From Candidatus Aenigmatarchaeota archaeon (GTDB lineage Archaea; Aenigmatarchaeota; Aenigmatarchaeia; PWEA01): a stretch of 30,992 nucleotides of DNA. Within the stretch, counting starts at the first letter, position 1, and every line of letters starts with the position of its first letter. The stretch is taken from the NCBI GenBank assembly GCA_046539285.1, contig JBKHHH010000005.1, forward strand, positions 1-30,992, read 5' to 3'. The notes under the pieces were generated by a model. That model was not told where the DNA came from. It was given only the letters and a program-made list of their open reading frames with translations, and made no database searches. The position numbers were made by a program, and so were the translations under genes. Below, piece by piece: positions 7,909 to 29,820 of the stretch.

Positions 7909-8262
7909 ATGGAGGAAGGTGAGACATTCGAGATAGATGAACCGCATTTTCAATGTGTGGTCTGTGAAGAAGAGATCGAGTTCAGTTTTGACGAAGAAGA
8001 CGGTCTGGAACCCGGAGAGATTTCCGAAGAGGTCCGAGAAGAGATCGGCGACGAGTTTATTCCTTCCGAGGAAGACTTCGCCGAGAGCGATGTTGGAATG
8101 GAAGAACCCGGTGTCGAGGGCTCGGAGATGAAGATAATCTGTGACTGCGGAGCTGAATACATTGTCAGAAAGACGCCAGGTGTACCGGGGTTCGAGGTTA
8201 GTCATACCATAGAAAGTGAACCGGAACTGGCTGAGAAAGAGTTCGAGGACCTGGAAAGGTAG
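7909..8262 (+). CDS. extremely acidic split zinc-ribbon protein, hypothetical
   Basis: 117 aa. CVVC (residues 16-19) and CDC (78-80) are separated by a D/E-rich linker. ATG start. The stop abuts the stop of the convergent gene with no spacer. Confidence 0.45.
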   Translation: MEEGETFEIDEPHFQCVVCEEEIEFSFDEEDGLEPGEISEEVREEIGDEFIPSEEDFAESDVGMEEPGVEGSEMKIICDCGAEYIVRKTPGVPGFEVSHTIESEPELAEKEFEDLER

Positions 8263-12536: not shown

Positions 12537-13019
12537 ATGAAGGTTGTGGGGATCGACCTGGCCGGGAAACCAGAGAACGATACAGGTTTCTGCGTTCTTG
12601 AAGACCATAAAGTAAGGGCGAAGACGCTGAAGAGCGACGAGGAGGTAATTGAATCCTTGGAGGAGGAAGAACCGGATCTGGTCGCGATCGACGCGCCCTT
12701 CAACTTCCCTGACTCCGGGCAGTACCGGGAGTCGGATATGTTACTCAAGAAGATGGGTTTCGACCCACTATCACCAACTTTTCCTGGAATGAAGATTCTT
12801 GTCCACAGGGCCAAAAAGCTGATCAAGGAACTGGAGAGGATCGACAGCCTGGAGATCATCGAGGTCTATTCTCGCGCCTCCGAGAAAATAATCCCGATCC
12901 AGCCGTCGGAAGACGCGAACGAAGATAAGTTCGATGCCCTGCTCTGCGCTCTGACCGGCAAAAGATATCTGGAAGGCGACTACGAGGACCTCTCGGGGAT
13001 AATTATCCCCAAGGGCTGA
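12537..13019 (+). CDS. DUF429-like predicted RNase-H-fold protein
   Basis: MKVVGIDLAGKPENDTGFCVL ... PDLVAIDAPF has the pattern of the DUF429/COG2410 family as I recall it. Confidence 0.45.
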   Translation: MKVVGIDLAGKPENDTGFCVLEDHKVRAKTLKSDEEVIESLEEEEPDLVAIDAPFNFPDSGQYRESDMLLKKMGFDPLSPTFPGMKILVHRAKKLIKELERIDSLEIIEVYSRASEKIIPIQPSEDANEDKFDALLCALTGKRYLEGDYEDLSGIIIPKG

Positions 13020-13081
13020 ACGACAGCCGGCTACCCTGTCCATGATCTCAGGAGTGAGGATAACCAGAAAAGAATATTGGA

Positions 13082-13159
13082 TGGCGGGCCTGTCGGGATT
13101 TGAACCCGAGATCTGTTGGTCCGCAACCAACCGTCCTGTCCAGACTAGACCACAGGCCC
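13082..13159 (-). tRNA. tRNA-Arg (anticodon GCG), CCA encoded
   Basis: The minus strand folds as a cloverleaf by hand: acceptor GGGCCUG/CAGGCCC, D stem GUCU/GGAC, anticodon stem GUUGG/CCAAC with loop UU-GCG-GA, T arm UCGGG-UUCAAAU-CCCGA, discriminator G and CCA. No intron. Confidence 0.9.
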
Positions 13160-13191
13160 TAATTGATGTTGAAAAGATAAAGTTAAAATAG

Positions 13192-13668
13192 TCACTGCTT
13201 TTTCTTGAAGAAGAGCCAGTTGTCCGGTTCCTCATCCGGTTTGAACCGGATCAGGACGTACTTTCCCGTTAACTTTTCGCCGTCTATATCTACGATGATC
13301 TCGTTCTCCTTCCACTTTTCTATCTTGAACGTTCCTCGATCCCAGACCTCGACCTCGCCGGCTCCGTAGTGACCTTCCTCGATAGTTCCTTCAAAGAAAG
13401 CGTAGGAAAGCGGGTGGTCCTCGGTCTGAACGGCCAGTCTCTTCACGCCTTCCTCCTGACTCGGCCCCTTTGGTATAGCCCAGCTTTTGAGAACACCACC
13501 CTTCTCCAGACGCAAATCGTAGTGCAGCCGCGAGGCGTCGTGTTTCTGGACGGAGTAGACCCTCTTTCCCTCTTCTCTGATCTTCTCTACTTCTTCCGAA
13601 TCGCTGTCTTTCGGTTCACCAGACTCTTCCAGATCCCGCTTGTCTTCGTAGTCTGTGAGATCTTTCAT
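13192..13668 (-). CDS. stand-alone LigD-type 3'-phosphoesterase (PE) domain protein
   Basis: [33 protein letters not shown] ... matches the PE-domain signature (QxHxAxxLHYDxRLE...KSWAVPKGP). It has an acidic N-terminal extension of about 35 aa. The ATG overlaps the rubrerythrin stop (ATGA). Confidence 0.75.
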
Positions 13669-14237: not shown

Positions 14238-14783
14238 ATGGATAAGATGGAGATACTGACCGCGCTTTTGGTAGGGATCTGGATCTTTATTCCCGCCTAC
14301 GCCGCCAACCTTGCCGCCCCTCTACCTAAGGGCGAGAAGAGAATGGACTTCGGCAAGAAGTTAGGCAAGAAAGACCTGCTCGGCGCGGGCAAGACCTGGG
14401 AAGGATTTCTCTTCGCCGTTCTGCTCGGCACCCTGGCCGGTGTGATACAGGTCAGCGGCTATGAGTTCCTGAACGGCTATGCGCTTCAGGCCGGTTTCTC
14501 CCTGCCGCAGCTCAGCTATACTGCAGTATTTTTCATAGCCCTGGGTTCGATGTGCGGTGACGTGGTCGCCTCCTTTTTCAAACGGCGGGTCGGTTTTGAA
14601 AGAGGAAAGAGCGTGATCCTCCTCGACCAGCTTGACTTCATACTCGGCGGCCTGGTTGCTGCCTACTTTTTCCTGACGCTGCAGCCCTTGCCTCTGTTTT
14701 TGGTATTGGTGATTACACCCGTCCTCCACTACGGCTTCAACCTACTGGGCTATGAGCTCGGCTACAAGGAGGTACCCTGGTAA
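14238..14783 (+). CDS. carS: CDP-archaeol synthase
   Basis: 181 aa, 5 TM helices. IWIFIPAYAANLAAPL, LGAGKTWEGF and GDVVASFFKRRVGFERG ... LLDQLDF match the CarS (DUF46) family. Confidence 0.65.
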   Translation: MDKMEILTALLVGIWIFIPAYAANLAAPLPKGEKRMDFGKKLGKKDLLGAGKTWEGFLFAVLLGTLAGVIQVSGYEFLNGYALQAGFSLPQLSYTAVFFIALGSMCGDVVASFFKRRVGFERGKSVILLDQLDFILGGLVAAYFFLTLQPLPLFLVLVITPVLHYGFNLLGYELGYKEVPW

Positions 14784-15430: not shown

Positions 15431-16233
15431 TCCAGGACTTCATCTACAGACACTTCATCGCCCTTTCGGGCAAGTACTACACGCTACCGTCCACCCTCAT
15501 CTATGCCCTGCTCTTCGCGATTACTGTTTTCCTGGTCTACAAGTACGTGCTCAAAAAGATGCCGTTTGAAGTCGATAAAAAGTTCCTCTACTCCCTGGCT
15601 CCTTTCATCGTTCTGGGTGGAATGACACGGGTCTTGAGAGACGCCGGTTTCTATGAAGGATTTTTCTTCGTCACACCCGGTGTCTACATAACCATCTTCT
15701 TTCTCGGCCTCGGTTCGCTGATAGCCTCACTCGGTCTCGAAAAATACCTGGAAAGGGACTGGAACCCCGGCTACCACGTCTGGATGTTCGCCTTCGGCTC
15801 GCTTTTCTCTCTGCTCAGCCTGGTTCAGATAATAAGGATCGGTCTGCCCAACCTGAGGGCTATGGGCATGGTGCTGGCTCTGGTCGCGGGCTGGAGCCTG
15901 GCCTTCTATCCGGTGACAAAATTCTTCCCTCGGTACCTGTCTCGCCTGAACTACTTCATCCTGATTTCACATCTCTTCGACGGGAGCTCGACCTTTGTAT
16001 CGCTCCAGTACTTCAACTACTTCGAGGAGCACGTCCTGCCCCGCTTCCTGATCGAATACACCGGGCCGTGGGTCATGTTCCCTCTCAAGATCGCCGTCAT
16101 CTGGTCCGTGCTCTACTCCGTGGACAGGTTGGTCGAAGAAGAAGACCTGAGAACCTGGCTGAAGATAGTGATTCTCGCACTGGGACTCGGTCTCGCCGTC
16201 CGGAATGTCTTCCGGGCCACGATGCTAGTCTAG
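15427..16233 (+). CDS. polytopic membrane protein (possibly DUF63-type), hypothetical
   Basis: 268 aa from ATG 15427, which overlaps the PHP stop (ATGA), with about 7 TM helices. The 81 codons upstream in the ORF track (15184-15426) are R/G-rich and overlap the PHP gene out of frame, so they are not counted. Confidence 0.55.
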   Translation: MIQDFIYRHFIALSGKYYTLPSTLIYALLFAITVFLVYKYVLKKMPFEVDKKFLYSLAPFIVLGGMTRVLRDAGFYEGFFFVTPGVYITIFFLGLGSLIASLGLEKYLERDWNPGYHVWMFAFGSLFSLLSLVQIIRIGLPNLRAMGMVLALVAGWSLAFYPVTKFFPRYLSRLNYFILISHLFDGSSTFVSLQYFNYFEEHVLPRFLIEYTGPWVMFPLKIAVIWSVLYSVDRLVEEEDLRTWLKIVILALGLGLAVRNVFRATMLV

Positions 16234-16806
16234 TTTTCTCACGCCCTTTACTGAATAGTACAGTCTTTGGAAGAAGGTGAAAATAGAAAGCCCGAAAATA
16301 ATCCAAATCCCGTAGTAGAGACTCTGACTGAAGAAAACGGTTCCTAAACTGAAAAACAGTAGTAGTATAATTCTATCGCTCCTTCCCAATAGACCTCCAT
16401 AGAGCCTTTCCTGGGTTATGGCCTGGTACTGCGTTCCTAGATAGGAAACAAGCAGGATGGAAATCACGGTTAGACTTCCCAGCCACAGAGGAACGGCCGG
16501 GTTCAGGGCGACTCCGAAGTAAACGGCGAAGTCGGCCAGTCTATCCAGCGTGTGGTCTAGAAAGTCGCCGAACTCTGTCGTCCGGTCGTACTCCTTGGCT
16601 ATCTGTCCGTCCAGGATGTCGAGAAATCCATTGAAAAAATAGAGCAGGCCGGCCAGAAGAATGTAGTCCCGGTAGAAGAAAAAACCCGAAGCCCCGGCCA
16701 CGAAGAAGGCCAGCAGGGATACGTAGTTCGGATCGATGTCGACCAGAAACGGCTTGAGTAACTTCTTCCTCAGATCCGGCTTCTTCTTTTCCAGGTCGTG
16801 GAGCAT
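16225..16806 (-). CDS. CDP-alcohol phosphatidyltransferase (archaetidyl-inositol-phosphate, -serine or -glycerophosphate synthase class)
   Basis: Exact signature D-x2-DG-x2-AR/K-x8-G-x3-D-x3-D in LDILDGQIAKEYDRTTEFGDFLDHTLDRLAD. 193 aa, 6 TM helices. The 3' end overlaps the convergent gene by 9 nt. Confidence 0.75.
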   Translation of the reverse strand: MLHDLEKKKPDLRKKLLKPFLVDIDPNYVSLLAFFVAGASGFFFYRDYILLAGLLYFFNGFLDILDGQIAKEYDRTTEFGDFLDHTLDRLADFAVYFGVALNPAVPLWLGSLTVISILLVSYLGTQYQAITQERLYGGLLGRSDRIILLLFFSLGTVFFSQSLYYGIWIIFGLSIFTFFQRLYYSVKGVRKLD

Positions 16807-17755: not shown

Positions 17756-18100
17756 ATGATGAAACAGGTTATCGTCGTCAGAAAGGACCTCGGTCTTTCG
17801 GCTGGAAAGCTGGCTGCTCAGGCCTGCCATGCCTCCCTCAAAGCCTGGAAAAAGGTGGAAAAGGATAAGAGAAACGATTGGGAGAGTAGTGGTGGGAAGA
17901 AAGTAATTCTCGCGGCGAAGGACGAAGAAGAGCTGATCGAGATCAAGCGTAATGCGGACCGGGCTCGGTTGCCCAACGCCCTGATCCGAGACGCCGGACT
18001 GACCGAGATAGAGCCGGGAACGAAGACGGCCCTGGCCATCGGACCGGAAAGGGAAGAAAAACTGAACAAGGTAACCGGACACCTCCCGCTCTTGAAGTAA
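17756..18100 (+). CDS. pth2: peptidyl-tRNA hydrolase, archaeal/eukaryotic Pth2 type
   Basis: VIVVRKDLGLSAGKLAAQACHAS ... GGKKVIL ... IRDAGLTEIEPGTKTALAIGP ... VTGHLPLL matches Pth2 throughout. GATTATAAAC box 24-33 nt upstream. Confidence 0.85.
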   Translation: MMKQVIVVRKDLGLSAGKLAAQACHASLKAWKKVEKDKRNDWESSGGKKVILAAKDEEELIEIKRNADRARLPNALIRDAGLTEIEPGTKTALAIGPEREEKLNKVTGHLPLLK

Positions 18101-18694: not shown

Positions 18695-19858
18695 ATGAAC
18701 AGGGGAGAACTGTGTGGGATGAGAGCCTATACTACCGAAGAGATGGACCTCTCCGGAACTGTAAAGTCCAGGCCGGACGACTTCCAGGTCGAAGAGATCC
18801 CGACCGACTTCTCCCTGGGAAACAAGTTCGGCATCTATCGTCTCGAGAAGACGAACTTGACCACCTGGCAGGCCGTCAACCAAATCAGCAGCAAGCTCAA
18901 TATTTCTTCAAGAAGGATCGGTTACGCCGGCCTCAAAGACCGGAGAGCAATCACAAAACAACATATCTCGATCCGGGGCTTCCAGAAGCAAGACGTCGTG
19001 ATAGACGACGATAAAATAGAACTGTCCTTTGTCTGTACTTCTTCAAAACCGATTAAATCAGGCGACCTGAAGGGGAACAAGTTCATCGTAACTATACGGG
19101 ATATAGATAAGTCGGAAAGAAAATGTAGGAAACTTCTTGAGAGAAAAAGGAAACAGATAAAGAAGGAAGGAATACCTAACTTCTACGGAACGCAGCGTTT
19201 CGGCGGAAAAAGAGCTGTGACCCACTTGTTGGGAAAGGAACTCCTGAAGAGAAACTACAAAGAAGCCATCATGGCCTATCTAACCGAGACCTCGGAAAGG
19301 GAGAACGATAGAACCCAGAAGGCAAGAGATAGACTCAAAGACGAAGAAGATTTTGAAGAAGCAACGGACTACTTTCCCCGTAACCTGGACTACGAAAGAA
19401 AGCTCATTAAGCGAATAGTGGATAGCTCGCCCCAATGGAATGAGGACTGGCTAAAGGTTCTCCAGGCCCTGCCCAAGAACCTCCGCCGTTTGTTCGTCCA
19501 CGCCTATCAGTCCTACATCTTCAACCTCTCCCTCTCCGACCTGATCCGCGACACCAACATAAACAACTTCCCGGCCAAGGTGGTCGGCTACACGACCAAG
19601 CTGAAGGAAGACAAATTCGATCGGATGATCAAGAAAAATCTGAAGAAGGATGGAATCGAGCCCAAGGATTTCAAGTTCAAGTCGATGCCCGAGCTGTCCT
19701 CGGAGGGAGCGGTAAGGGCAGCTCTGATCAAGCCAGAGATAAAAATAGAAGATGTAAGTGAAGATAAAGCTAATCCAGGTAAAGCAGAAGCAACAGTAAG
19801 CTTTAGTCTCAAACCGGGCCGCTACGCGACCGTCGTCCTCCGCGAACTTCTAGTCTAA
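18695..19858 (+). CDS. truD: tRNA pseudouridine synthase TruD/Pus7 family
   Basis: PDDFQVEEI near the N-terminus, the catalytic-Asp motif YAGLKDRRAITKQ, and NFYGTQRFG. The start is uncertain: ATG at 18695 or 18719. The ORF-track start at 18686 is a GTG. Confidence 0.8.
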   Translation: MNRGELCGMRAYTTEEMDLSGTVKSRPDDFQVEEIPTDFSLGNKFGIYRLEKTNLTTWQAVNQISSKLNISSRRIGYAGLKDRRAITKQHISIRGFQKQDVVIDDDKIELSFVCTSSKPIKSGDLKGNKFIVTIRDIDKSERKCRKLLERKRKQIKKEGIPNFYGTQRFGGKRAVTHLLGKELLKRNYKEAIMAYLTETSERENDRTQKARDRLKDEEDFEEATDYFPRNLDYERKLIKRIVDSSPQWNEDWLKVLQALPKNLRRLFVHAYQSYIFNLSLSDLIRDTNINNFPAKVVGYTTKLKEDKFDRMIKKNLKKDGIEPKDFKFKSMPELSSEGAVRAALIKPEIKIEDVSEDKANPGKAEATVSFSLKPGRYATVVLRELLV

Positions 19859-20201: not shown

Positions 20202-20816
20202 TTAAAGTGTTTCCCTGAGCGTCTCTCTATTGAACTTGGTGTTCGAACACCCGTTCTTGAGAAGCGGAACGCCCTGGTAGCTGATATCCTTGCCCTCGAG
20301 CTTCTTGATGGCCAGCATGATCTCCTCGGAGCAGGCGATCCCGACCACGCCTCCGTAGTTGTTCTTCCTCATTATCTTCGGGATGCAGGAACTACCCGGG
20401 ACGATATACACATCATAGTTGTTCTCCTCACCCAGTTCGCTCGCCGCTCTGGCCGAACAGTTTTCAGAACATTTTTTACAGATGTAGGAAGACGTCTCCT
20501 GGTCGAACTCCGCCTCGCATTTGTTGTCCATGTGTTTCCGCACGCAGTGCGGAACGAACAGTGCCCTCCTATCCGTCTCCTCGAACCTGTCCTTCTCGGC
20601 CAGATTTTTGACGTGGATCTCGGCCATGTCCTCAAGCAACTGTATCGATTCCTCCATCGGCAGGCCGGTTATCTCCTTGATCCTTGTCTTCTTGACCAGC
20701 ATCTTGGCCGCCTCCCCCGCCCTATGGTGGAGGTCTTTGCTCTCGGTAAACCGGGCCACGTCCTTGAAGAAGGACTTGGAGATCTTGGTCAGGTCGAAGT
20801 CGAAGGAGTATGACAT
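20202..20816 (-). CDS. DUF116-like cysteine-rich protein
   Basis: FVPHCVRKHMDNKCEAEF...YICKKCSENC ... VYIVPGSSCIP ... GVVGIACSEE matches my recollection of the DUF116 cysteine pattern. Confidence 0.5.
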   Translation of the reverse strand: MSYSFDFDLTKISKSFFKDVARFTESKDLHHRAGEAAKMLVKKTRIKEITGLPMEESIQLLEDMAEIHVKNLAEKDRFEETDRRALFVPHCVRKHMDNKCEAEFDQETSSYICKKCSENCSARAASELGEENNYDVYIVPGSSCIPKIMRKNNYGGVVGIACSEEIMLAIKKLEGKDISYQGVPLLKNGCSNTKFNRETLRETL

Positions 20817-23782: not shown

Positions 23783-24451
23783 CTATTCTCCGGCCTTCTC
23801 GAGCTCCTCAGCGACGATTTCTCTTACTTTCTCGTGGTTCTGGAATCCATGGTGAACCTGGTCGTTGACAACCAATGTTGGAGTCTCGGTCACGTTGTAC
23901 CTCTCCTTGAGGATGGTTATCATGTTTTCCTCTATTTCCATGTCCAGCGGGAAGACCCAGACCTTCTTGTCGTAGGTCTTTCTGATCTGAGTCAGAATGA
24001 AGCCCTGCGTCGGACAGGAGCCGCATCCTTCCTCGTGAAAGTAGAGGACCCAGATGTCGTCGTTGTCACAGAGCTCGTTCGACTTCCTGAGAAGCATCCA
24101 GTAGCGGAGGTTGGCTATCGTGTAGTCCCTCTTCAGGTCCAGGTATTCTTCTTTGCTGAAGTCACTGCTCTTTTGATAGTCACTGAGCTGATCAAGGAGA
24201 CCTTTCAGTCGCACCAGACTTTTCTTTATCGTCTGATCCGATATGCGGCAGAAGTCTTCCGGTGATACCTCGGAGAGGTAGAAGTACTGTGTCTGGAGAT
24301 CTTTGTAGTCTATCCTTTCCTCCTCGAGACTGTTCTGCAGATAGTTCAACCGCATCGTGTCCATGAATTCCCCGGCGGCCAGACCTGAGAAGATTATGGC
24401 CATGGTCAAAGCCCCGGCGAAGAGGTAGCGTCTTTTCTTGATCTCTCGCAT
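23783..24451 (-). CDS. membrane-anchored extracytoplasmic thioredoxin-fold protein with CGSC active site (paralogue 1)
   Basis: From ATG 24451 (TTTTATAT box 28-35 nt upstream; the ORF-track start at 24496 is a TTG). Basic N-terminus MREIKKRR plus one TM helix, then a helical region, then VLYFHEEGCGSCPTQ ... TETPTLVV (CxxC plus a cis-Pro-type TP). Confidence 0.6.
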   Translation of the reverse strand: MREIKKRRYLFAGALTMAIIFSGLAAGEFMDTMRLNYLQNSLEEERIDYKDLQTQYFYLSEVSPEDFCRISDQTIKKSLVRLKGLLDQLSDYQKSSDFSKEEYLDLKRDYTIANLRYWMLLRKSNELCDNDDIWVLYFHEEGCGSCPTQGFILTQIRKTYDKKVWVFPLDMEIEENMITILKERYNVTETPTLVVNDQVHHGFQNHEKVREIVAEELEKAGE

Positions 24452-24536
24452 CTTATCTAAAACTAACTTCTGGTCCAAATATAAAACATTTTCCAATCCG
24501 ACAAAGCTTTTATTGCCTCGTCGTAATAGTTTAGGT

Positions 24537-25607
24537 ATGGACTATTCCGTTGTCGTCCCTACCTACAACGAACGGGAGAACGTGGAGGAGCTAGTCGAGA
24601 GAATCTCAAGTTCTCTTGAGAACATGGACTACGAGATAATCATCGTCGACGACGACTCGCCCGATAAGACCTGGGAACTGGCCGGAAAACTGGCCGAAAG
24701 CAGAAATGACTTGCGGGTCATCCGCCGGAGGAAGGAAAAGGGACTGGCCACGGCCGTGGTCCGCGGCTTTGAGGAAGCGAAAGGTGAGAGACTGGCCGTG
24801 ATAGACTCCGACCTCCAGCATCCCCCGGAGAAGCTCAGGGAACTTTACGAGGCACTGGACGACAACGACATTGCTATCGGATCCAGGAAAGTCGAAGGTG
24901 GTGGCATCGAGGACTGGCCCTTCTACCGCAAGATAATTTCAAAGGGTGCCGAGCTGATAGGCAAGGTCTTCGTCAAGGAGGTTCGCGAAGTCAAGGACCC
25001 GCTGTCCGGGTTTTTTGCCCTGCGAAGAGAAGTCATTGAAGACGTTGAGCTGGATCCCGAAGGCTACAAAATATTAATCGAGATACTGGTTCGAGGTGAG
25101 TACAATGATGTGGAAGAAATGCCTTTCACCTTTGTGGATCGCGAGAAGGGGGAAAGCTCACTTGGACTGAAGCAGAACTGGAACTACCTGAAGCATATCT
25201 TCCGCCTTTCCAAGGACACAGGAGAGATGTTTCGTTTCTTCAAGTTCTGTCTTGTCGGTCTCAGCGGCGTCTTCGTCAACATGGGCGTTCTCTACGTCTT
25301 GACGGAACTGGCCGGACTTTTCTACCTCATTTCCGGTTTCTTCGCCGTCGAATCGGCGATAGTTTCCAACTTCGTTCTCAACGAACTGTGGACGTTTAAC
25401 GATCGAACCGGGAAGACGATTCTTCACCGTTTCGGCAAGTTCAACCTGATCTCCTTCGGAGGACTGGCCATCAACATGGCCTTTCTCTACGGCCTGACTG
25501 AATTTGTCGGACTGTATTACCTCCTCTCCAACCTGATCGGTATCGCCGCGGCCACAGCCTGGAACTTCTCCCTCAACACTCTCTTTACCTGGCACGAGGA
25601 CAAGTGA
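24537..25607 (+). CDS. dolichyl-phosphate hexose synthase (DPM1/AglD-like GT2) fused to a GtrA-like 4-TM domain
   Basis: VVVPTYNERENV, IIIVDDDSPDKT and AVIDSDLQHPP are the DPM1-type GT2 motifs. The C-terminal 130 aa carry four helices of the GtrA pattern. CTTTTATTG box 22-30 nt upstream of ATG 24537 (the ORF-track start at 24438 overlaps the divergent gene). Confidence 0.8.
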   Translation: MDYSVVVPTYNERENVEELVERISSSLENMDYEIIIVDDDSPDKTWELAGKLAESRNDLRVIRRRKEKGLATAVVRGFEEAKGERLAVIDSDLQHPPEKLRELYEALDDNDIAIGSRKVEGGGIEDWPFYRKIISKGAELIGKVFVKEVREVKDPLSGFFALRREVIEDVELDPEGYKILIEILVRGEYNDVEEMPFTFVDREKGESSLGLKQNWNYLKHIFRLSKDTGEMFRFFKFCLVGLSGVFVNMGVLYVLTELAGLFYLISGFFAVESAIVSNFVLNELWTFNDRTGKTILHRFGKFNLISFGGLAINMAFLYGLTEFVGLYYLLSNLIGIAAATAWNFSLNTLFTWHEDK

Positions 25608-25640
25608 GACTTTTATATCTGTTTATCCAATTTTTTACCG

Positions 25641-27044
25641 ATGCTCGAAGAAAAACTGGAAGGACTGGAAGAGAAACACTATATTGCGATAATTCTTACC
25701 GTCTTCTTCGCGGCCGAGCTTATCGTTATCTATAAGATATGGAACCGACCGCCGATCTGGGACTCGGCCGTTTACATCGGCATGGGCAAAGCCCTTTTCT
25801 CTGCCGGCGAAGCCGGTCTCTGGGAGAACTTTCGCCCGCCCCTGATGCCTGTTCTTCTGGGTTTCGTGGACCTTGTTACTGATAACATATCTTCCGTCTC
25901 CAGACTGTTGAGCCTGACGATCTCGACGCTCGGAGCCGGTCTCATCTATGTATTAAGCAAACGAAGCTTCGACCGGGAGACGGCCTTTTACACGGCCTCG
26001 CTTGTCCTCGGAACCGGTATATTTTTCCTCTACACGAACCATGTCCTGACCGGGATACTGGCCTCCGTTCTTGTCTTTACATCCCTCTGCCTTGCCCGGG
26101 AAGAACGCTACTTTTTGTCCGGTCTTGTTGTTGCCTTGGCCTTTTTGACAAGATTCCCGGCCGCCCTGGTCGGTGCCGCGGTCTTTATCTATATTGTCTT
26201 TAAGTCCTATCAGGAAAAGAAGTGGAAAGAAGGCCTTGAAGACACGGTCTTTTTGATCCTGGGTTTCGCCCTGATCGCAGGACCTTACTTTCTGCTCAAC
26301 CAGCTCTTCTACGGTGACTTCCTGTTCCCGATAACCCGAGGCCTGGCCGTCCCACAGGCCGTTGCCTCGACCGACTTCATGTACGGTCTGTACTTTTATC
26401 TCGGGTCTCTGGCCTCCAACCCGTTCCTGGCCCTCTTCCCGCTGGGGATATACTTTACAATCAAGAAAAAGGAATCGAAATACGCACCGTTCCTGATCGC
26501 CCTCCTACTGTTCTACGGCTTTTTCACTGCTTTCTCGCACAAGGAGGTGCGCTTCGCTCTACTGTTCCTCCCCTTAATGTCACTCTTGACGGCCCGCGTT
26601 CTCAAGGAGATCAGGGAAAGAGAGATAGTTTCCAAACGGATGCTTCAGTTCGGCTTCAGCTTCGTCGTAGTTTTCCTGATTCTCTCGGCGACGATGGTCA
26701 ACCTCCAGACACGCGCCTACGACAATCCAGGCCAGGACGCCTTCTACTCGGAAGCATCGGAACTGGAGGGAACGGTCGCGGCCAACGATCCCCTGGTCAT
26801 GGTCTACGGTGACTTCCGCTACGCAGAGCTACCACCGGGCCGACTGGAGGAGTATTACGAGAGAAACATCAACGAAACTGACTACGTGGCGATCAACAGT
26901 TGTAACTGGTACTGTCCGAGAGAGATGAGCGAGGAGGAGTGTGAGGAAGAGAGGAACGACCTGAGAAACTGGATCGAGACAGACCTCCAAGAACATTTTA
27001 ATCTGAGCCAGGATGACTGTCAATACCTCATCTATAAGAGGTGA
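25641..27044 (+). CDS. GT-C fold glycosyltransferase (GT39/GT83, ArnT/PMT/AglS-like), Dol-P-sugar dependent
   Basis: 467 aa with about 10 TM helices in the first 350 aa. The first external loop, RPPIWDSAVYIGMGKAL, has the Asp typical of GT-C enzymes. The C-terminal acidic soluble domain has 4 Cys (NSCNWYCP...EEECEEE...DDCQY). Confidence 0.65.
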   Translation: MLEEKLEGLEEKHYIAIILTVFFAAELIVIYKIWNRPPIWDSAVYIGMGKALFSAGEAGLWENFRPPLMPVLLGFVDLVTDNISSVSRLLSLTISTLGAGLIYVLSKRSFDRETAFYTASLVLGTGIFFLYTNHVLTGILASVLVFTSLCLAREERYFLSGLVVALAFLTRFPAALVGAAVFIYIVFKSYQEKKWKEGLEDTVFLILGFALIAGPYFLLNQLFYGDFLFPITRGLAVPQAVASTDFMYGLYFYLGSLASNPFLALFPLGIYFTIKKKESKYAPFLIALLLFYGFFTAFSHKEVRFALLFLPLMSLLTARVLKEIREREIVSKRMLQFGFSFVVVFLILSATMVNLQTRAYDNPGQDAFYSEASELEGTVAANDPLVMVYGDFRYAELPPGRLEEYYERNINETDYVAINSCNWYCPREMSEEECEEERNDLRNWIETDLQEHFNLSQDDCQYLIYKR

Positions 27045-27691
27045 AAACCATCGAGAAATACAAGTATTTCGGTCTCGCGATCTTTGCGATAGTTATCTTT
27101 GTTCTCGGTATGGTCTTCGCTAACTCTCTCTGGAAAAACGAGATTATCGACACCGAGACCGACCTGGATCGCGACACCACCGAGCTGAGATCGATGGAGC
27201 TTCAGCTGATCTACCTGCAGTCCGAAAGTGTCAAGTCCTGTGACCTGCTCGAACTCGGTCTCCAGGATACGATGAGCGACTACAACGAGAACCTGAAGAA
27301 AGTCCAGAACTATAACTCCACTTTCAACCGTGAGCGCTACCGGTTACTGAAGAAAAGGTACGTCCTCTCCGGTATAATGTACTGGATATTTGCCGAGGAT
27401 CTCCGGGAGAAGTGCGATTTCAACGCCACGACAGCCCTCTTCTTTACCGAAAGCCTGGACGAGGAGTCCAGAAACGAATGCGAGAGCAAGGTCACTGATA
27501 ATCTGGACTCCCTGAAGGAGGACTATGGAGATGGCCTGCTGGTGTTCACAGTTCCCATGGAGATGGATCTCGGCATGGCCGATGTGCTCGAGAAGCAGTA
27601 CGAGGTGGAAGACGTTCCTCTCCTGGTTTTCAATGGAAACAATACTATTTCCGGCTGTCCGGACCGGGAAGAGATAGAAGCCGAACTCTAG
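27041..27691 (+). CDS. membrane-anchored thioredoxin-fold paralogue lacking the CxxC site (paralogue 2)
   Basis: The GTG start overlaps the GT-C stop (GTGA). It has the same length class and landmarks as 23783-24451: an N-terminal TM, YL…C, Y..LKKRY…MYW…EKCD, LFF.E, VF…ME…L….Y.V…P.LV.N, and an EL C-terminus. However, CGSC is replaced by DEES. Confidence 0.55.
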   Translation: MKTIEKYKYFGLAIFAIVIFVLGMVFANSLWKNEIIDTETDLDRDTTELRSMELQLIYLQSESVKSCDLLELGLQDTMSDYNENLKKVQNYNSTFNRERYRLLKKRYVLSGIMYWIFAEDLREKCDFNATTALFFTESLDEESRNECESKVTDNLDSLKEDYGDGLLVFTVPMEMDLGMADVLEKQYEVEDVPLLVFNGNNTISGCPDREEIEAEL

Positions 27692-28921
27692 CTACCATTT
27701 CTTTTCTTTGCCTGTGATCACTTCCCAGATTACCACTATGCAGACCGCTCCGATTAGTAAAAAATAGAAAAACATGTAGGGGACCAGAGCCATCTTTTTC
27801 TTCAGGCCTATGCTTTCGTTTGTGATCTTATGGGATATCCAGATCAGGACCATGGTCACCAGTCCGAGACATCCGAGCACCATGTAGTTCTTGGCGTTAA
27901 GGTTGAGCAGTATTTCCAGAATATTGAGATCAAAGCTCATGGTGCTTATCAGCGGACCAACCTGAAAACCGACGGCGCTCAAATTGAGAATAAGCTCGTA
28001 GATCGGAGTCAGGGTGAACTTTCCGATCATGACCAGGACTATCGCGGCCAGGAAGACCTGGATTACACTGACCGGCATCTGAAACATTCCGAAGTCGCCG
28101 TACTCCCGGTGGAATACCATTTCCTTGTAGCGAATGGCGTTGAACAGCGAGCCCTTGTACCATCTATTCCTCTGGTGGTAGAACTCCTTCAGAGTCGAGG
28201 GCGCATTGGTGTAGACGTCTCCTTCGTAGCAGTTTCTTATCTTCTCGTGATGCTTCTGGAATCGATGGGCTATCTCCTTGTCCTCGACCAGACTATCGGT
28301 GTCGAAACCGCCCACTTCCTCCAGTACGCTTCTCCTGTAGAGAGAGAAGGGTCCGGGTGTAACAAAGATACAGTTTATCTTTTCCATCATCTCCTTGAGA
28401 AAGATGCCCAGGATGTACTCGAACCACTGCATCAGCTGAAGCAGGTTGTCGGGCTTGTTGACTTTCATAGCCGGGGTCACGGCGGCCGTATCGTCGTCCA
28501 TCAGTCTCAACATCTTCTTCAGCGTCCCGGGTGCCGGGAAAGAGTCGGCGTCCAGGCAAGCGACGAACTCGCCGCTTGTTTCTTCGAGTCCACGGTTGAG
28601 AGCCGCACCCTTGCCCTGGTTTTCCTGGTTGATCAGCTTTATTTCGTCTTCGTATTTCTCGGCTATTTCTCTGGTTCTGTCCTGGGAGCCGTCGTTGACG
28701 ACCACGACCTCGAGCTTGTCTTCCGGGTAGTCCAGATCCAGGGCCCCTTCGATCGTGTCGGCGATCCCTTCTTCTTCGTTGTAGGCCGGGATCACGATCG
28801 AGACGGAGGGCCATTCCTCGTAGTCAATTTTTTCCTTGGTTGTGCCCCGGTTCTCAATGAACAGGATCAGAAAGAAGATCGTGATATAGAGAATAGGAAA
28901 GTAGAGCAAGAGGCGGATCAT
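27692..28921 (-). CDS. processive family-2 glycosyltransferase (NodC/PgaC/chitin- or cellulose-synthase-like)
   Basis: VSIVIPAYNEE, VVVVNDGSQD, ACLDADS, LVEDKEIA and the processivity motif HQRNRWYKG (QxxRW). TM helices at both ends. Confidence 0.8.
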   Translation of the reverse strand: MIRLLLYFPILYITIFFLILFIENRGTTKEKIDYEEWPSVSIVIPAYNEEEGIADTIEGALDLDYPEDKLEVVVVNDGSQDRTREIAEKYEDEIKLINQENQGKGAALNRGLEETSGEFVACLDADSFPAPGTLKKMLRLMDDDTAAVTPAMKVNKPDNLLQLMQWFEYILGIFLKEMMEKINCIFVTPGPFSLYRRSVLEEVGGFDTDSLVEDKEIAHRFQKHHEKIRNCYEGDVYTNAPSTLKEFYHQRNRWYKGSLFNAIRYKEMVFHREYGDFGMFQMPVSVIQVFLAAIVLVMIGKFTLTPIYELILNLSAVGFQVGPLISTMSFDLNILEILLNLNAKNYMVLGCLGLVTMVLIWISHKITNESIGLKKKMALVPYMFFYFLLIGAVCIVVIWEVITGKEKKW

Positions 28922-28923
28922 AG

Positions 28924-29820
28924 CTATTCCTCCCTGTACTTGATGCGGTTTGTCCGGCCGACCTTTTTCACTTCTATCAGACCCCTTTCCTTGAGGTCGC
29001 GGATCAGGCGCGAGACCTTGGCCTTGGAGAAATCGACCTGACTGACGATCCTTTTCTGTTTGATCTCGTTACCCGAAGCTTTGATAATTTCAAGTATCTT
29101 TCTTTCGTCCTCTTTCAGGGCCTGAGGCAGCTTGTCTTCGTCACCGCTGCTTGTCCTTAGAGCCAGGAAGAGTAGCAGTACGATCAGCAATGAACCCAGT
29201 CCTATCACGTAGAGGTTGCTGGTATCAGGTTCCTCTTCTCCCGCCTCTTCGAAGGAGACCGAGGGGCTAATACCTTCCCCTTCTGTAACGTCTTCCCTAG
29301 TCCAGTATACATATATTCGGCGACCGTCCGATCCCTTTTCACCGTTCCGTGGCGAGTAGCTGGAAAAGGGACTGGTTTCGTTTTCAGGTATCAGGACCAG
29401 GCCGCTGTCGAGGTTGCTGGTATAGACGAGGCGGTTGGTGTCCATAGGAACTTTGAGGTTGTCTTCGAAGGAGTAGTGTGCTTCCCTTCTCTTTGTCAGG
29501 CTGTTGGTTCTGAACTCAAATGTCAGTCTCCCCCTTTCGTTTTCCGGAAGATCGCAGTCGATCAGGGATCCGTAATCCCTTTCCTCTATGGTACAGCTTG
29601 AGTTTGCTACCGTCGATCTGAAGTTGAAATCTTGGCTTGGGAAGAGCAGTGGTATCTTTAATCTGTCGGGCATGGATGTGAATATCAGAGTGTCCTCGGC
29701 TTCCACCGTGGTCTTGTCTATAAATACCTCCCTCTTGTAGAAATCGAGCTCCGCGGCGGAAGCAAAGCTGGTCAAAAGGAGGCTACTGAGTAATGTTATC
29801 ACTAAGACCTTCTTGAACAT
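28924..29820 (-). CDS. bitopic protein: signal/anchor, about 215-aa extracytoplasmic domain, TM helix, cytoplasmic winged-helix DNA-binding domain
   Basis: From ATG 29820: MFKKVLVITLLSSLLLTSFASA, then a beta-rich domain, then LYVIGLGSLLIVLLLFLAL, then DERKILEIIKASGNEIKQKRIVSQVDFSKAKVSRLIRDLKERGLIEVKKVGRTNRIKY (MarR/TrmB-like wHTH). The stop lies 2 nt from the GT2 ATG. Confidence 0.6.
   Translation of the reverse strand: MFKKVLVITLLSSLLLTSFASAAELDFYKREVFIDKTTVEAEDTLIFTSMPDRLKIPLLFPSQDFNFRSTVANSSCTIEERDYGSLIDCDLPENERGRLTFEFRTNSLTKRREAHYSFEDNLKVPMDTNRLVYTSNLDSGLVLIPENETSPFSSYSPRNGEKGSDGRRIYVYWTREDVTEGEGISPSVSFEEAGEEEPDTSNLYVIGLGSLLIVLLLFLALRTSSGDEDKLPQALKEDERKILEIIKASGNEIKQKRIVSQVDFSKAKVSRLIRDLKERGLIEVKKVGRTNRIKYREE

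Follow-up and report, generated by a model that had tools for sequence, protein, structure and literature searches.

A thioredoxin-fold protein family whose gene is paired with that of a cellulose-synthase-like glycosyltransferase across DPANN archaea

We analyzed a 30,992-nt stretch of DNA (the window; contig JBKHHH010000005.1 of assembly GCA_046539285.1), which comes from a genome labelled Candidatus Aenigmatarchaeota archaeon and carries two diverged genes, here called Par1 and Par2, for small membrane-anchored proteins with a thioredoxin fold. The two genes belong to a so far unannotated thioredoxin-fold family, and the new result is that, across DPANN archaea, its gene is obligately paired with that of a cellulose-synthase-like glycosyltransferase of family 2 (GT2). 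Given that the thioredoxin-like gene almost always lies right behind the GT2 gene, its product is probably a dedicated helper of this cell-surface glycan machine. The explanation that we favor, at roughly even odds (about 0.5), is that the family is the extracytoplasmic partner subunit of a GT2 that makes surface glycan, with CxxC redox activity in most members, and that Par1 and Par2 have become sub-functionalized.

Loci were collected by scanning GTDB species genomes with a 12-sequence alignment, which yielded 66 genome loci; those that are labelled come mostly from DPANN-type metagenome-assembled genomes (MAGs) of Woesearchaeota, Nanoarchaeia and Aenigmatarchaeota. On the first three contigs inspected, a homologue of the window gene at 27692-28921, which encodes a GT2, lay directly upstream of the thioredoxin-like gene in every case (3/3). 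A tblastn search placed the GT2 gene directly upstream and on the same strand in 60 of the 61 genome loci with enough flanking sequence, and in the sole locus that it missed (L005) the called GT2 gene ends 10 nt upstream of the thioredoxin-like gene, which brings the count to 61/61. The gap between the two genes in the genome loci was 0-90 nt, and mostly 18 nt or less. We also performed the reciprocal search, starting from the GT2, and the thioredoxin-like gene was found directly downstream in 65/65 eligible metagenome loci, that is, those in which the 3' end of the GT2 gene is complete and followed by 400 nt or more of sequence. In total, the pairing held in 126/126 loci from woese-, nano-, aenigmat- and nanohaloarchaeal lineages.

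This result changes how the module is delimited. A sequence-only reading of positions 23783-27691 had described two thioredoxin-fold paralogues that bracket a dolichol-phosphate-mannose (Dol-P-Man) synthase (DPMS) and a GT-C glycosyltransferase, and had taken these two enzymes to define the module. All four open reading frames (ORFs) are where that reading put them. However, a homologue of the window GT-C was present within 3 kb downstream in 35 of 55 genome loci and in 10 of 32 metagenome loci, and a strong DPMS match near the thioredoxin-like gene is rare, being seen in a handful of loci only. The constant neighbor is instead the GT2 with the QxxRW motif, whose gene lies outside the stretch covered by that reading. 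The expectation that the four-gene block is conserved elsewhere is thus borne out in part: a Nanohalobium MAG has GT2, GT-C, thioredoxin-like and DPMS genes in one tight operon, but the GT-C and DPMS genes do not accompany the family throughout.

The catalytic residues D77, D124xD126, E213-D214 and Q250-R-x-R-W254 of the window GT2 are each at least 95% conserved in 110 homologues, and the protein has a single hydrophobic or transmembrane (TM) segment at its N-terminus and three at its C-terminus, so that it shows the motif pattern of processive membrane GT2 enzymes. Its best curated match is PgaC_IcaA (TIGR03937; E 8e-48), with 163.3 bits against an equivalog cut-off of 422.3, and on this score it is to be placed as a relative of PgaC and not as an orthologue. 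The PDB sequence matches are chondroitin synthase, the archaeal membrane GT2 6yv7 and BcsA. From the motifs, the PgaC/IcaA match below the cut-off and the PDB matches, we therefore class the enzyme as a cellulose-synthase-like membrane GT2. We also searched the GT2 for a conserved external cysteine that might be a redox target, and found none.

Par1 and Par2 align along their full length with 25% identity (BLASTP E 6e-16), which is far beyond chance, and the family profile recovers both (E 2e-70 for Par1 and 3e-48 for Par2). Par1 is 30-39% identical to the copies in the 66 DPANN genome loci. In the AlphaFold models (pLDDT 77.5 for Par1; pLDDT 91.4 and pTM 0.80 for Par2), both proteins consist of a long helix that contains the TM segment, two further helices and then a beta-alpha-beta-alpha-beta-beta-alpha domain. 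The best Foldseek matches of both copies are thioredoxins (E ~1e-5 to 1e-4, TM-score on the target 0.65-0.8). A search of the family profile against the PDB returned as its best match a thioredoxin (4o32/3ul3, PfTrx2; E 7.5e-9) that covered positions 130-216 alone; the stalk region had no recognizable relative in that search. These entries are labelled ‘a malarial protein’, which we take to be Plasmodium thioredoxin 2, presumably the one reported as an accessory component of the PTEX membrane translocon. Models, structure matches and profile thus all assign both copies to the thioredoxin-fold superfamily, and the paralogy and fold read from the letters hold for both proteins.

The same reading had given each protein a basic N-terminus and a single TM anchor, and this pattern extends to the family. 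Among 150 full-length members, the N-terminal flank of the TM segment has 3.7 Lys+Arg against 0.8 Asp+Glu and the C-terminal flank 1.9 against 2.7, and no member has a second TM segment. Under the positive-inside rule, the basic N-flank and acidic C-flank would give an N-in/C-out topology, with the thioredoxin head outside the cell.

The two copies differ at the active site. Par1 has the previously noted CGSC at 143-146, with a helix beginning at 146, as is typical of the CxxC of catalytic thioredoxins. In Par2, R-N-E-C147 aligns opposite C-R-K-C of its nearest relatives, which means that the nucleophilic first cysteine has been lost and the second retained; having the second cysteine only, Par2 lacks the catalytic-thioredoxin CxxC. 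The loss had been recognized from the sequence, but the ‘DEES’ that had been placed at this position sits a few residues upstream of the true site, inside a 3-residue insertion. The intact ORF, the retained invariant residues and the pLDDT of 91 rule out that Par2 is a pseudogene.

Conservation across the 150 members shows which residues the family keeps. The pair of stalk cysteines and the predicted cis-proline position (residues in Table 1) are invariant (150/150), so that the landmarks picked out in Par1 and Par2 are those of the whole family. CxxC is present in 134 of the 150 members (89%); of the other 16, 10 have neither cysteine and six have the second only. Across the family, CxxC is retained in 89-94%. 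The highest conservation is found at the stalk cysteine pair, Y110, W118 and the cis-proline, and not at CxxC. The residues between the active-site cysteines vary widely (CPDC, CPEC, CGSC and others), and selection therefore acts on the two cysteines themselves, a pattern that does not tell a structural from a catalytic disulfide. The retention of CxxC together with the cis-proline in ~90% of members argues for genuine thiol-disulfide chemistry, and from these residues the family is most likely redox-active as a rule. At four loci (L074, L082, L132 and L146), a member without CxxC is the sole local copy behind the GT2. This suggests that a non-redox partnership is the indispensable part and that redox chemistry is not. 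In most of the non-halophile members, the C-terminus bears two additional cysteines.

Having two copies is a property of the window alone among 142 loci with a thioredoxin-like gene. The active/degraded pair of thioredoxins that had been read as wired into the module is therefore a local peculiarity of this genome and not a conserved design. The nearest relative of Par2 is the Nanohalobium MAG copy (P0019; 40-43% identity), which is a single copy and bears CxxC. In that MAG, PTH2 and TruD genes precede the operon and a DUF7343 gene is nearby; its GT-C matches that of the window best among the loci, and its DPMS second best. The window thus holds a Nanohalobium-like gene set, rearranged, plus Par1 as an extra copy. 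Par1 is closer than Par2 to the bulk of the family, and a rough neighbor-joining tree puts both within one seven-member clade of four-cysteine proteins, in which they are not sisters.

The family is large. An exhaustive profile search gave 1290 representatives (50%-identity clusters) with an E threshold of 1e-3 and 972 with one of 1e-10, and almost all are full-length proteins of 210-240 aa. This overturned the impression of a rare family that word-indexed searches had left, which returned four relatives for Par1, none for Par2 and nine with a 66-sequence profile. The family has no Pfam or NCBIfam model of its own: Pfam searches with 66 members gave sub-threshold matches to the thioredoxin clan only, and NCBIfam gave nothing significant. 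Source records label the proteins “hypothetical” or “thioredoxin family”. A published account of the family, or of its pairing with the GT2, was not found in the literature searched, whose coverage leaves out most subscription journals.

The features of the window, together with two loci used for comparison, are given in Table 1.

Table 1. Positions of the genes and elements discussed (window coordinates unless a locus is named)
Feature	Position	Strand	Basis or details
ORF read as PTH2	17756-18100		Size and position match Nanohalobium PTH2
ORF read as TruD	18695-19858		Size and position match Nanohalobium TruD
Acidic S-layer-type gene, 889 aa	20944-23613	-	Pfam S_layer_C, E 9.5e-23
Par1, 222 aa, membrane-anchored thioredoxin fold	23783-24451	-	CGSC C143-C146; stalk C68/C128; cis-Pro P191
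Divergent Par1/DPMS spacer, 85 nt	24452-24536		Two TATA-like A/T boxes, sequence reading
DPMS-type GT2 with C-terminal GtrA/DPMS four-helix membrane domain, 356 aa	24537-25607	+	Pfam; 5mlz match
GT-C glycosyltransferase, Alg9/PMT_2-like, 467 aa, four-cysteine soluble C-terminal domain	25641-27044	+	Pfam GT22/PMT_2
Par2, 216 aa, diverged copy	27041-27691	+	Site R-N-E-C147; stalk C67/C125; cis-Pro P193
QxxRW membrane GT2, cellulose-synthase-like, 409 aa	27692-28921	-	Motifs, Pfam/NCBIfam, synteny
DUF7343 membrane/winged-helix protein	28924-29820	-	Pfam DUF7343, E 1e-16
Upstream multi-TM pair, locus L001	5844-7343 and 7276-8736		
Upstream multi-TM pair, locus L005	3996-5474 and 5476-6735		

The junctions between these genes were read directly. 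Par1 starts with an ATG at 24451 and stops at 23783, and the spacer that separates it from the divergent DPMS gene contains, as had been reported, two TATA-like elements, ‘AAATATAAAA’ and ‘CTTTTATTG’, each ~25-30 nt from a start codon; these boxes may serve as promoters. The translational coupling of Par2 to the GT-C gene through a GTGA overlap is likewise present: the GTG start of Par2 (27041-27043) overlaps the TGA stop of GT-C (27042-27044) in a junction that reads ‘aGGTGAaa’. This start is supported by the alignment of the Par2 N-terminus with homologues from residue 1. Par2 and the QxxRW GT2 gene meet tail to tail, stop to stop, with zero spacing. The two upstream ORFs read as PTH2 and TruD are tentatively so assigned, from their sequence and the Nanohalobium parallel. 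Between the TruD-like and S-layer genes lies a DUF116 gene (E 4.6e-29; 20202-20816, minus strand), which is part of the material that parts PTH2/TruD from the glycan cluster when compared with the Nanohalobium order.

The identities of the two enzymes between Par1 and Par2 agree with those proposed from the sequence. The 356-aa enzyme matches Pfam Glycos_transf_2 (E 2.5e-36) and GtrA_DPMS_TM (E 1e-26) and aligns over residues 2-352 with the Pyrococcus furiosus DPMS 5mlz (E 1.2e-111), as expected for a predicted type III Dol-P-Man synthase. The GT-C protein scores above threshold with GT22 (69.7 bits, cut-off 23.8) and PMT_2 (49.6 bits, cut-off 26.1), and W40-D41 is at least 95% conserved in 42 homologues. 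This pattern points to the GT-C class, in which a conserved acidic residue is expected in the first external loop. The soluble four-cysteine domain at its C-terminus had also been seen, and its cysteines C421, C425, C434 and C460 are 76-95% conserved in the same homologues. NCBIfam models of haloarchaeal Agl enzymes (AglJ, AglG and DPhHxTase_Halo) gave matches far below their cut-offs only.

Next to the GT2 gene, 2 nt upstream and on the same strand, is the DUF7343 gene, whose product has a two-cysteine ectodomain, a second TM segment and a cytoplasmic winged helix. DUF7343 homologues adjoin the cluster in Nanohalobium (L072, 12217-13113) and in a DPANN MAG (L009, ~12718-13377), and the protein possibly regulates the glycan cluster while tethered to the membrane. 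Directly downstream of Par1 is the gene for the S-layer-type protein, which has only two cysteines (C807 and C833), 28% Asp+Glu and 4% Lys+Arg, and is a possible client of the thioredoxin-like proteins. Linkage to an S-layer gene is not a general feature of the clusters, as a homologue was found near the cluster in just one other locus (L027). Two paralogous multi-TM proteins of ~420-500 aa precede the GT2 in 33 of 49 genome loci, including the majority of the non-halophile ones, and are absent from the window. They have C-terminal soluble domains, one with a conserved terminal cysteine pair, and a GT-C-like look; Pfam gave no significant match, and the chlor_Arch_YYY domain matched weakly. 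We considered them as homologues of the window GT-C and rejected this, the similarity being marginal (E 0.008).

We propose that the family consists of type-II membrane proteins in which a short N-terminus, basic and cytoplasmic, leads into a single TM helix, followed by a stalk of three helices that is probably locked by the invariant cysteine pair, and by an outward thioredoxin head. The GT2 and thioredoxin-like genes nearly always lie next to each other in the same direction, 0-20 nt apart, which implies co-translation and, we infer, a physical complex. The TM helix would pack against the GT2 synthase, as PgaD/IcaD and BcsB do with theirs, and the head would be positioned above the glycan exit, near GT-C enzymes that use Dol-P-Man from the DPMS. 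In most members, the groove formed by CxxC and the cis-proline would most likely carry out thiol-disulfide exchange on nearby cysteine-bearing ectodomains, and candidate clients are the four-cysteine domain of GT-C, other proteins of the cluster and acceptor proteins. In this genome, a gene duplication or the acquisition of a second copy would have occurred within the halophile sub-clade. Par2, inside the glycosylation cluster and translationally coupled to GT-C, may have kept a scaffold or binding role, its nucleophilic cysteine being lost; Par1 would have a redox role, since it keeps CGSC, appears to have its own promoter and adjoins the S-layer gene.

Several observations weigh against this proposal. 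The product of the synthase would be a polysaccharide without thiols, which leaves unexplained why its partner should carry a redox head. DsbB, VKOR and CcdA, which could close the redox cycle, were sought among the membrane ORFs of the window and none was seen. One of the PDB matches of the GT2, 6yv7, is a structurally similar archaeal enzyme that we take to be the non-processive PcManGT, and a processive mode is at most putative for the window GT2. In addition, the loci were retrieved by the stalk motif or by the GT2 itself, and thus the sample may be biased toward canonical clusters. The window itself breaks the co-directional order from GT2 to thioredoxin-like gene, as Par2 is convergent with the GT2 gene and Par1 is 3.2 kb away.

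We also considered other explanations. The family could be a co-synthase subunit with a purely structural role, comparable to BcsB, PgaD or IcaD; the thioredoxin fold would then guide or cap the polymer or stabilize the synthase, and CxxC would form a structural disulfide. Such a subunit would account for the obligate tight pairing with the GT2 gene, the repeated loss of CxxC from members that stay in the slot, the rank of the stalk cysteines, Y110, W118 and the cis-proline above CxxC in conservation, and the good folding of Par2 despite its incomplete site. PgaD (with PgaC), IcaD (with IcaA) and BcsB (with BcsA) are likewise membrane-anchored accessories encoded immediately downstream of a GT2 with D, DxD, ED and QxxRW motifs, and BcsB holds an external alpha/beta domain above the exit of the channel. 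However, these proteins have no sequence or fold relation to the family, and lack a thioredoxin fold and CxxC, whereas CxxC in 89-94% of the family, at the canonical helix N-terminus and with a cis-proline, is the signature of a catalytic thioredoxin. We therefore regard a purely structural role as unlikely, if less so than the other alternatives. A general DsbA-like oxidase that acts on many exported proteins of the DPANN envelope and hitch-hikes in a neighborhood of surface genes is, by comparison, quite improbable. The family does look like an outward-facing (predicted), membrane-anchored CxxC thioredoxin, many exported proteins of the cluster have cysteine pairs, and no other Dsb-type gene was seen in the window. 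Coupling at 0-20 nt to one GT2 across lineages (126/126 loci) would nevertheless be unexpected for a housekeeping oxidase, as would loss of CxxC while staying in place, and the helical domain precedes the fold and is not inserted into it as in DsbA. No DSBA Pfam match was obtained, and Thioredoxin_4 matched weakly in 3 of 66 members. TlpA, ResA, CcmG and BdbD/DsbA share the N-terminal anchor, the outward CxxC thioredoxin fold and the cis-proline with the family, and BdbD is a weak profile match, but they have neither an invariant disulfide-locked three-helix stalk nor a linkage to a glycosyltransferase.

A further possibility is a role like that of Ost3/Ost6/MagT1, in which the head transiently captures cysteine-bearing acceptors, for instance the S-layer protein, through mixed disulfides and keeps them unfolded for external mannosylation by GT-C from Dol-P-Man, so that the partner would be the GT-C/DPMS pair. 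By analogy, these subunits of oligosaccharyltransferase (OST) would be the closest functional precedent for the family: Ost3p/Ost6p and TUSC3/MagT1 place a membrane-bound CxxC thioredoxin domain on the non-cytoplasmic side of a lipid-linked-sugar glycosylation machine and occur as paralogous isoforms (PMC4137057, PMC8191290), and the thioredoxin-homologue subunit is needed for cysteine-proximal glycosylation sites (PMC4137057). The identities of DPMS and GT-C are solid, Par2 is translationally coupled to GT-C, the thioredoxin-like gene follows GT-C in Nanohalobium, and an S-layer gene whose product has two cysteines adjoins Par1. On the other side, 20/55 and 22/32 loci have no GT-C within 3 kb and strong DPMS matches are rare, while the GT2 is always there; members without CxxC persist in the canonical slot; the copy coupled to GT-C here is the one without the nucleophilic cysteine; and the S-layer linkage recurs in one other locus. 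The architecture is also reversed, since Ost3/6 have an N-terminal thioredoxin domain followed by four TM segments whereas the family has an N-terminal anchor, a stalk and a C-terminal head, and Ost3/6 work with STT3/AglB and not with a GT2 synthase in an archaeal DPANN lineage. The OST3_OST6 Pfam model matched none of the 66 members, which sets the family apart from Ost3/Ost6. We hold this role, too, to be unlikely. The idea from the sequence-only reading that disulfide chemistry is coupled to glycosylation of the S-layer or other cysteine-rich proteins is close to this role, has the same eukaryotic precedent (PMC4137057) and by that analogy is possible.

Two other known systems resemble parts of the cluster. 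The DPMS and GT-C of the window fit the logic of three-component extracytoplasmic glycosylation (GtrB synthase, GtrA and a GT-C enzyme; for the GtrB/DPMS class, see PMC4728340) and of Haloferax AglD/AglS, but those systems have neither a thioredoxin component nor a linked QxxRW synthase. Pfam TraF (PF13728) was the most frequent weak match of the family (22 of 66 members); the best E among members was 3e-6, and Par1 reached 19.4 bits against a cut-off of 23. TraF, without CxxC, and TrbB, with CxxC, are thioredoxin-like paralogues of the F plasmid that serve one envelope machine, and in this respect resemble Par2 and Par1. They are, however, soluble periplasmic proteins of a conjugation system, without a stalk and without a link to a glycosyltransferase.

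Some further observations concern the window and the compared loci. Most soluble ORFs of the window, whose MAG bears the label Aenigmatarchaeota, are strongly acidic, which is the mark of a salt-in halophile, and the best matches of the glycan cluster are nanohaloarchaeal. A small ORF (7909-8262, plus strand) encodes 36% Asp+Glu and 5% Lys+Arg, with a CxxC near the N-terminus. The window also encodes a CarS-like CDP-archaeol synthase (14238-14783, plus strand; E 1.6e-39), and a CDP-alcohol phosphatidyltransferase is found at 16225-16806 (minus strand). These lipid head-group genes stand out because many DPANN archaea are thought to lack lipid biosynthesis. Many public MAG records with the cluster (L011, L020-L023, L030, L035, L043, L044, L049-L052, L056-L058, L061 and L070) bear the title ‘uncultured Methanosarcinales’ or, in one case, ‘Candidatus Binatia bacterium’; such titles are probably taxonomic mislabels or reflect mis-binned contigs. 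In Nanohalobium (L072, 2069-5482), a 1137-aa DUF87-type gene with intein matches (Intein_splicing and LAGLIDADG_3) lies upstream, a few kb from the cluster.

A bolder form of the partner-subunit reading would make the pair a so far unrecognized two-component surface-glycan synthase of DPANN archaea, in which the GT2 obligatorily works with an outward-facing, disulfide-locked thioredoxin subunit. The CxxC of this subunit would chemically gate or couple the export of the polymer, for instance through covalent transfer of the glycan machinery, or of what it makes, to cysteine-bearing envelope or host-contact proteins. We consider this rather unlikely; if it is true, redox state would be a control point in building the attachment surface of the symbiont. 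The favored reading, in which the thioredoxin-like protein is the extracytoplasmic partner of the GT2, has consequences of its own. A thioredoxin-GT2 machine would be a prokaryotic counterpart of the thioredoxin subunits of eukaryotic OST, and the window, with one CGSC copy and one copy that keeps the second cysteine only, offers a natural separation-of-function pair. Little is understood of the way in which DPANN archaea, with their tiny genomes and their life attached to hosts, construct their surface. We suggest that this gene pair offers a concrete and testable entry point to a conserved machine for surface glycan in these archaea.

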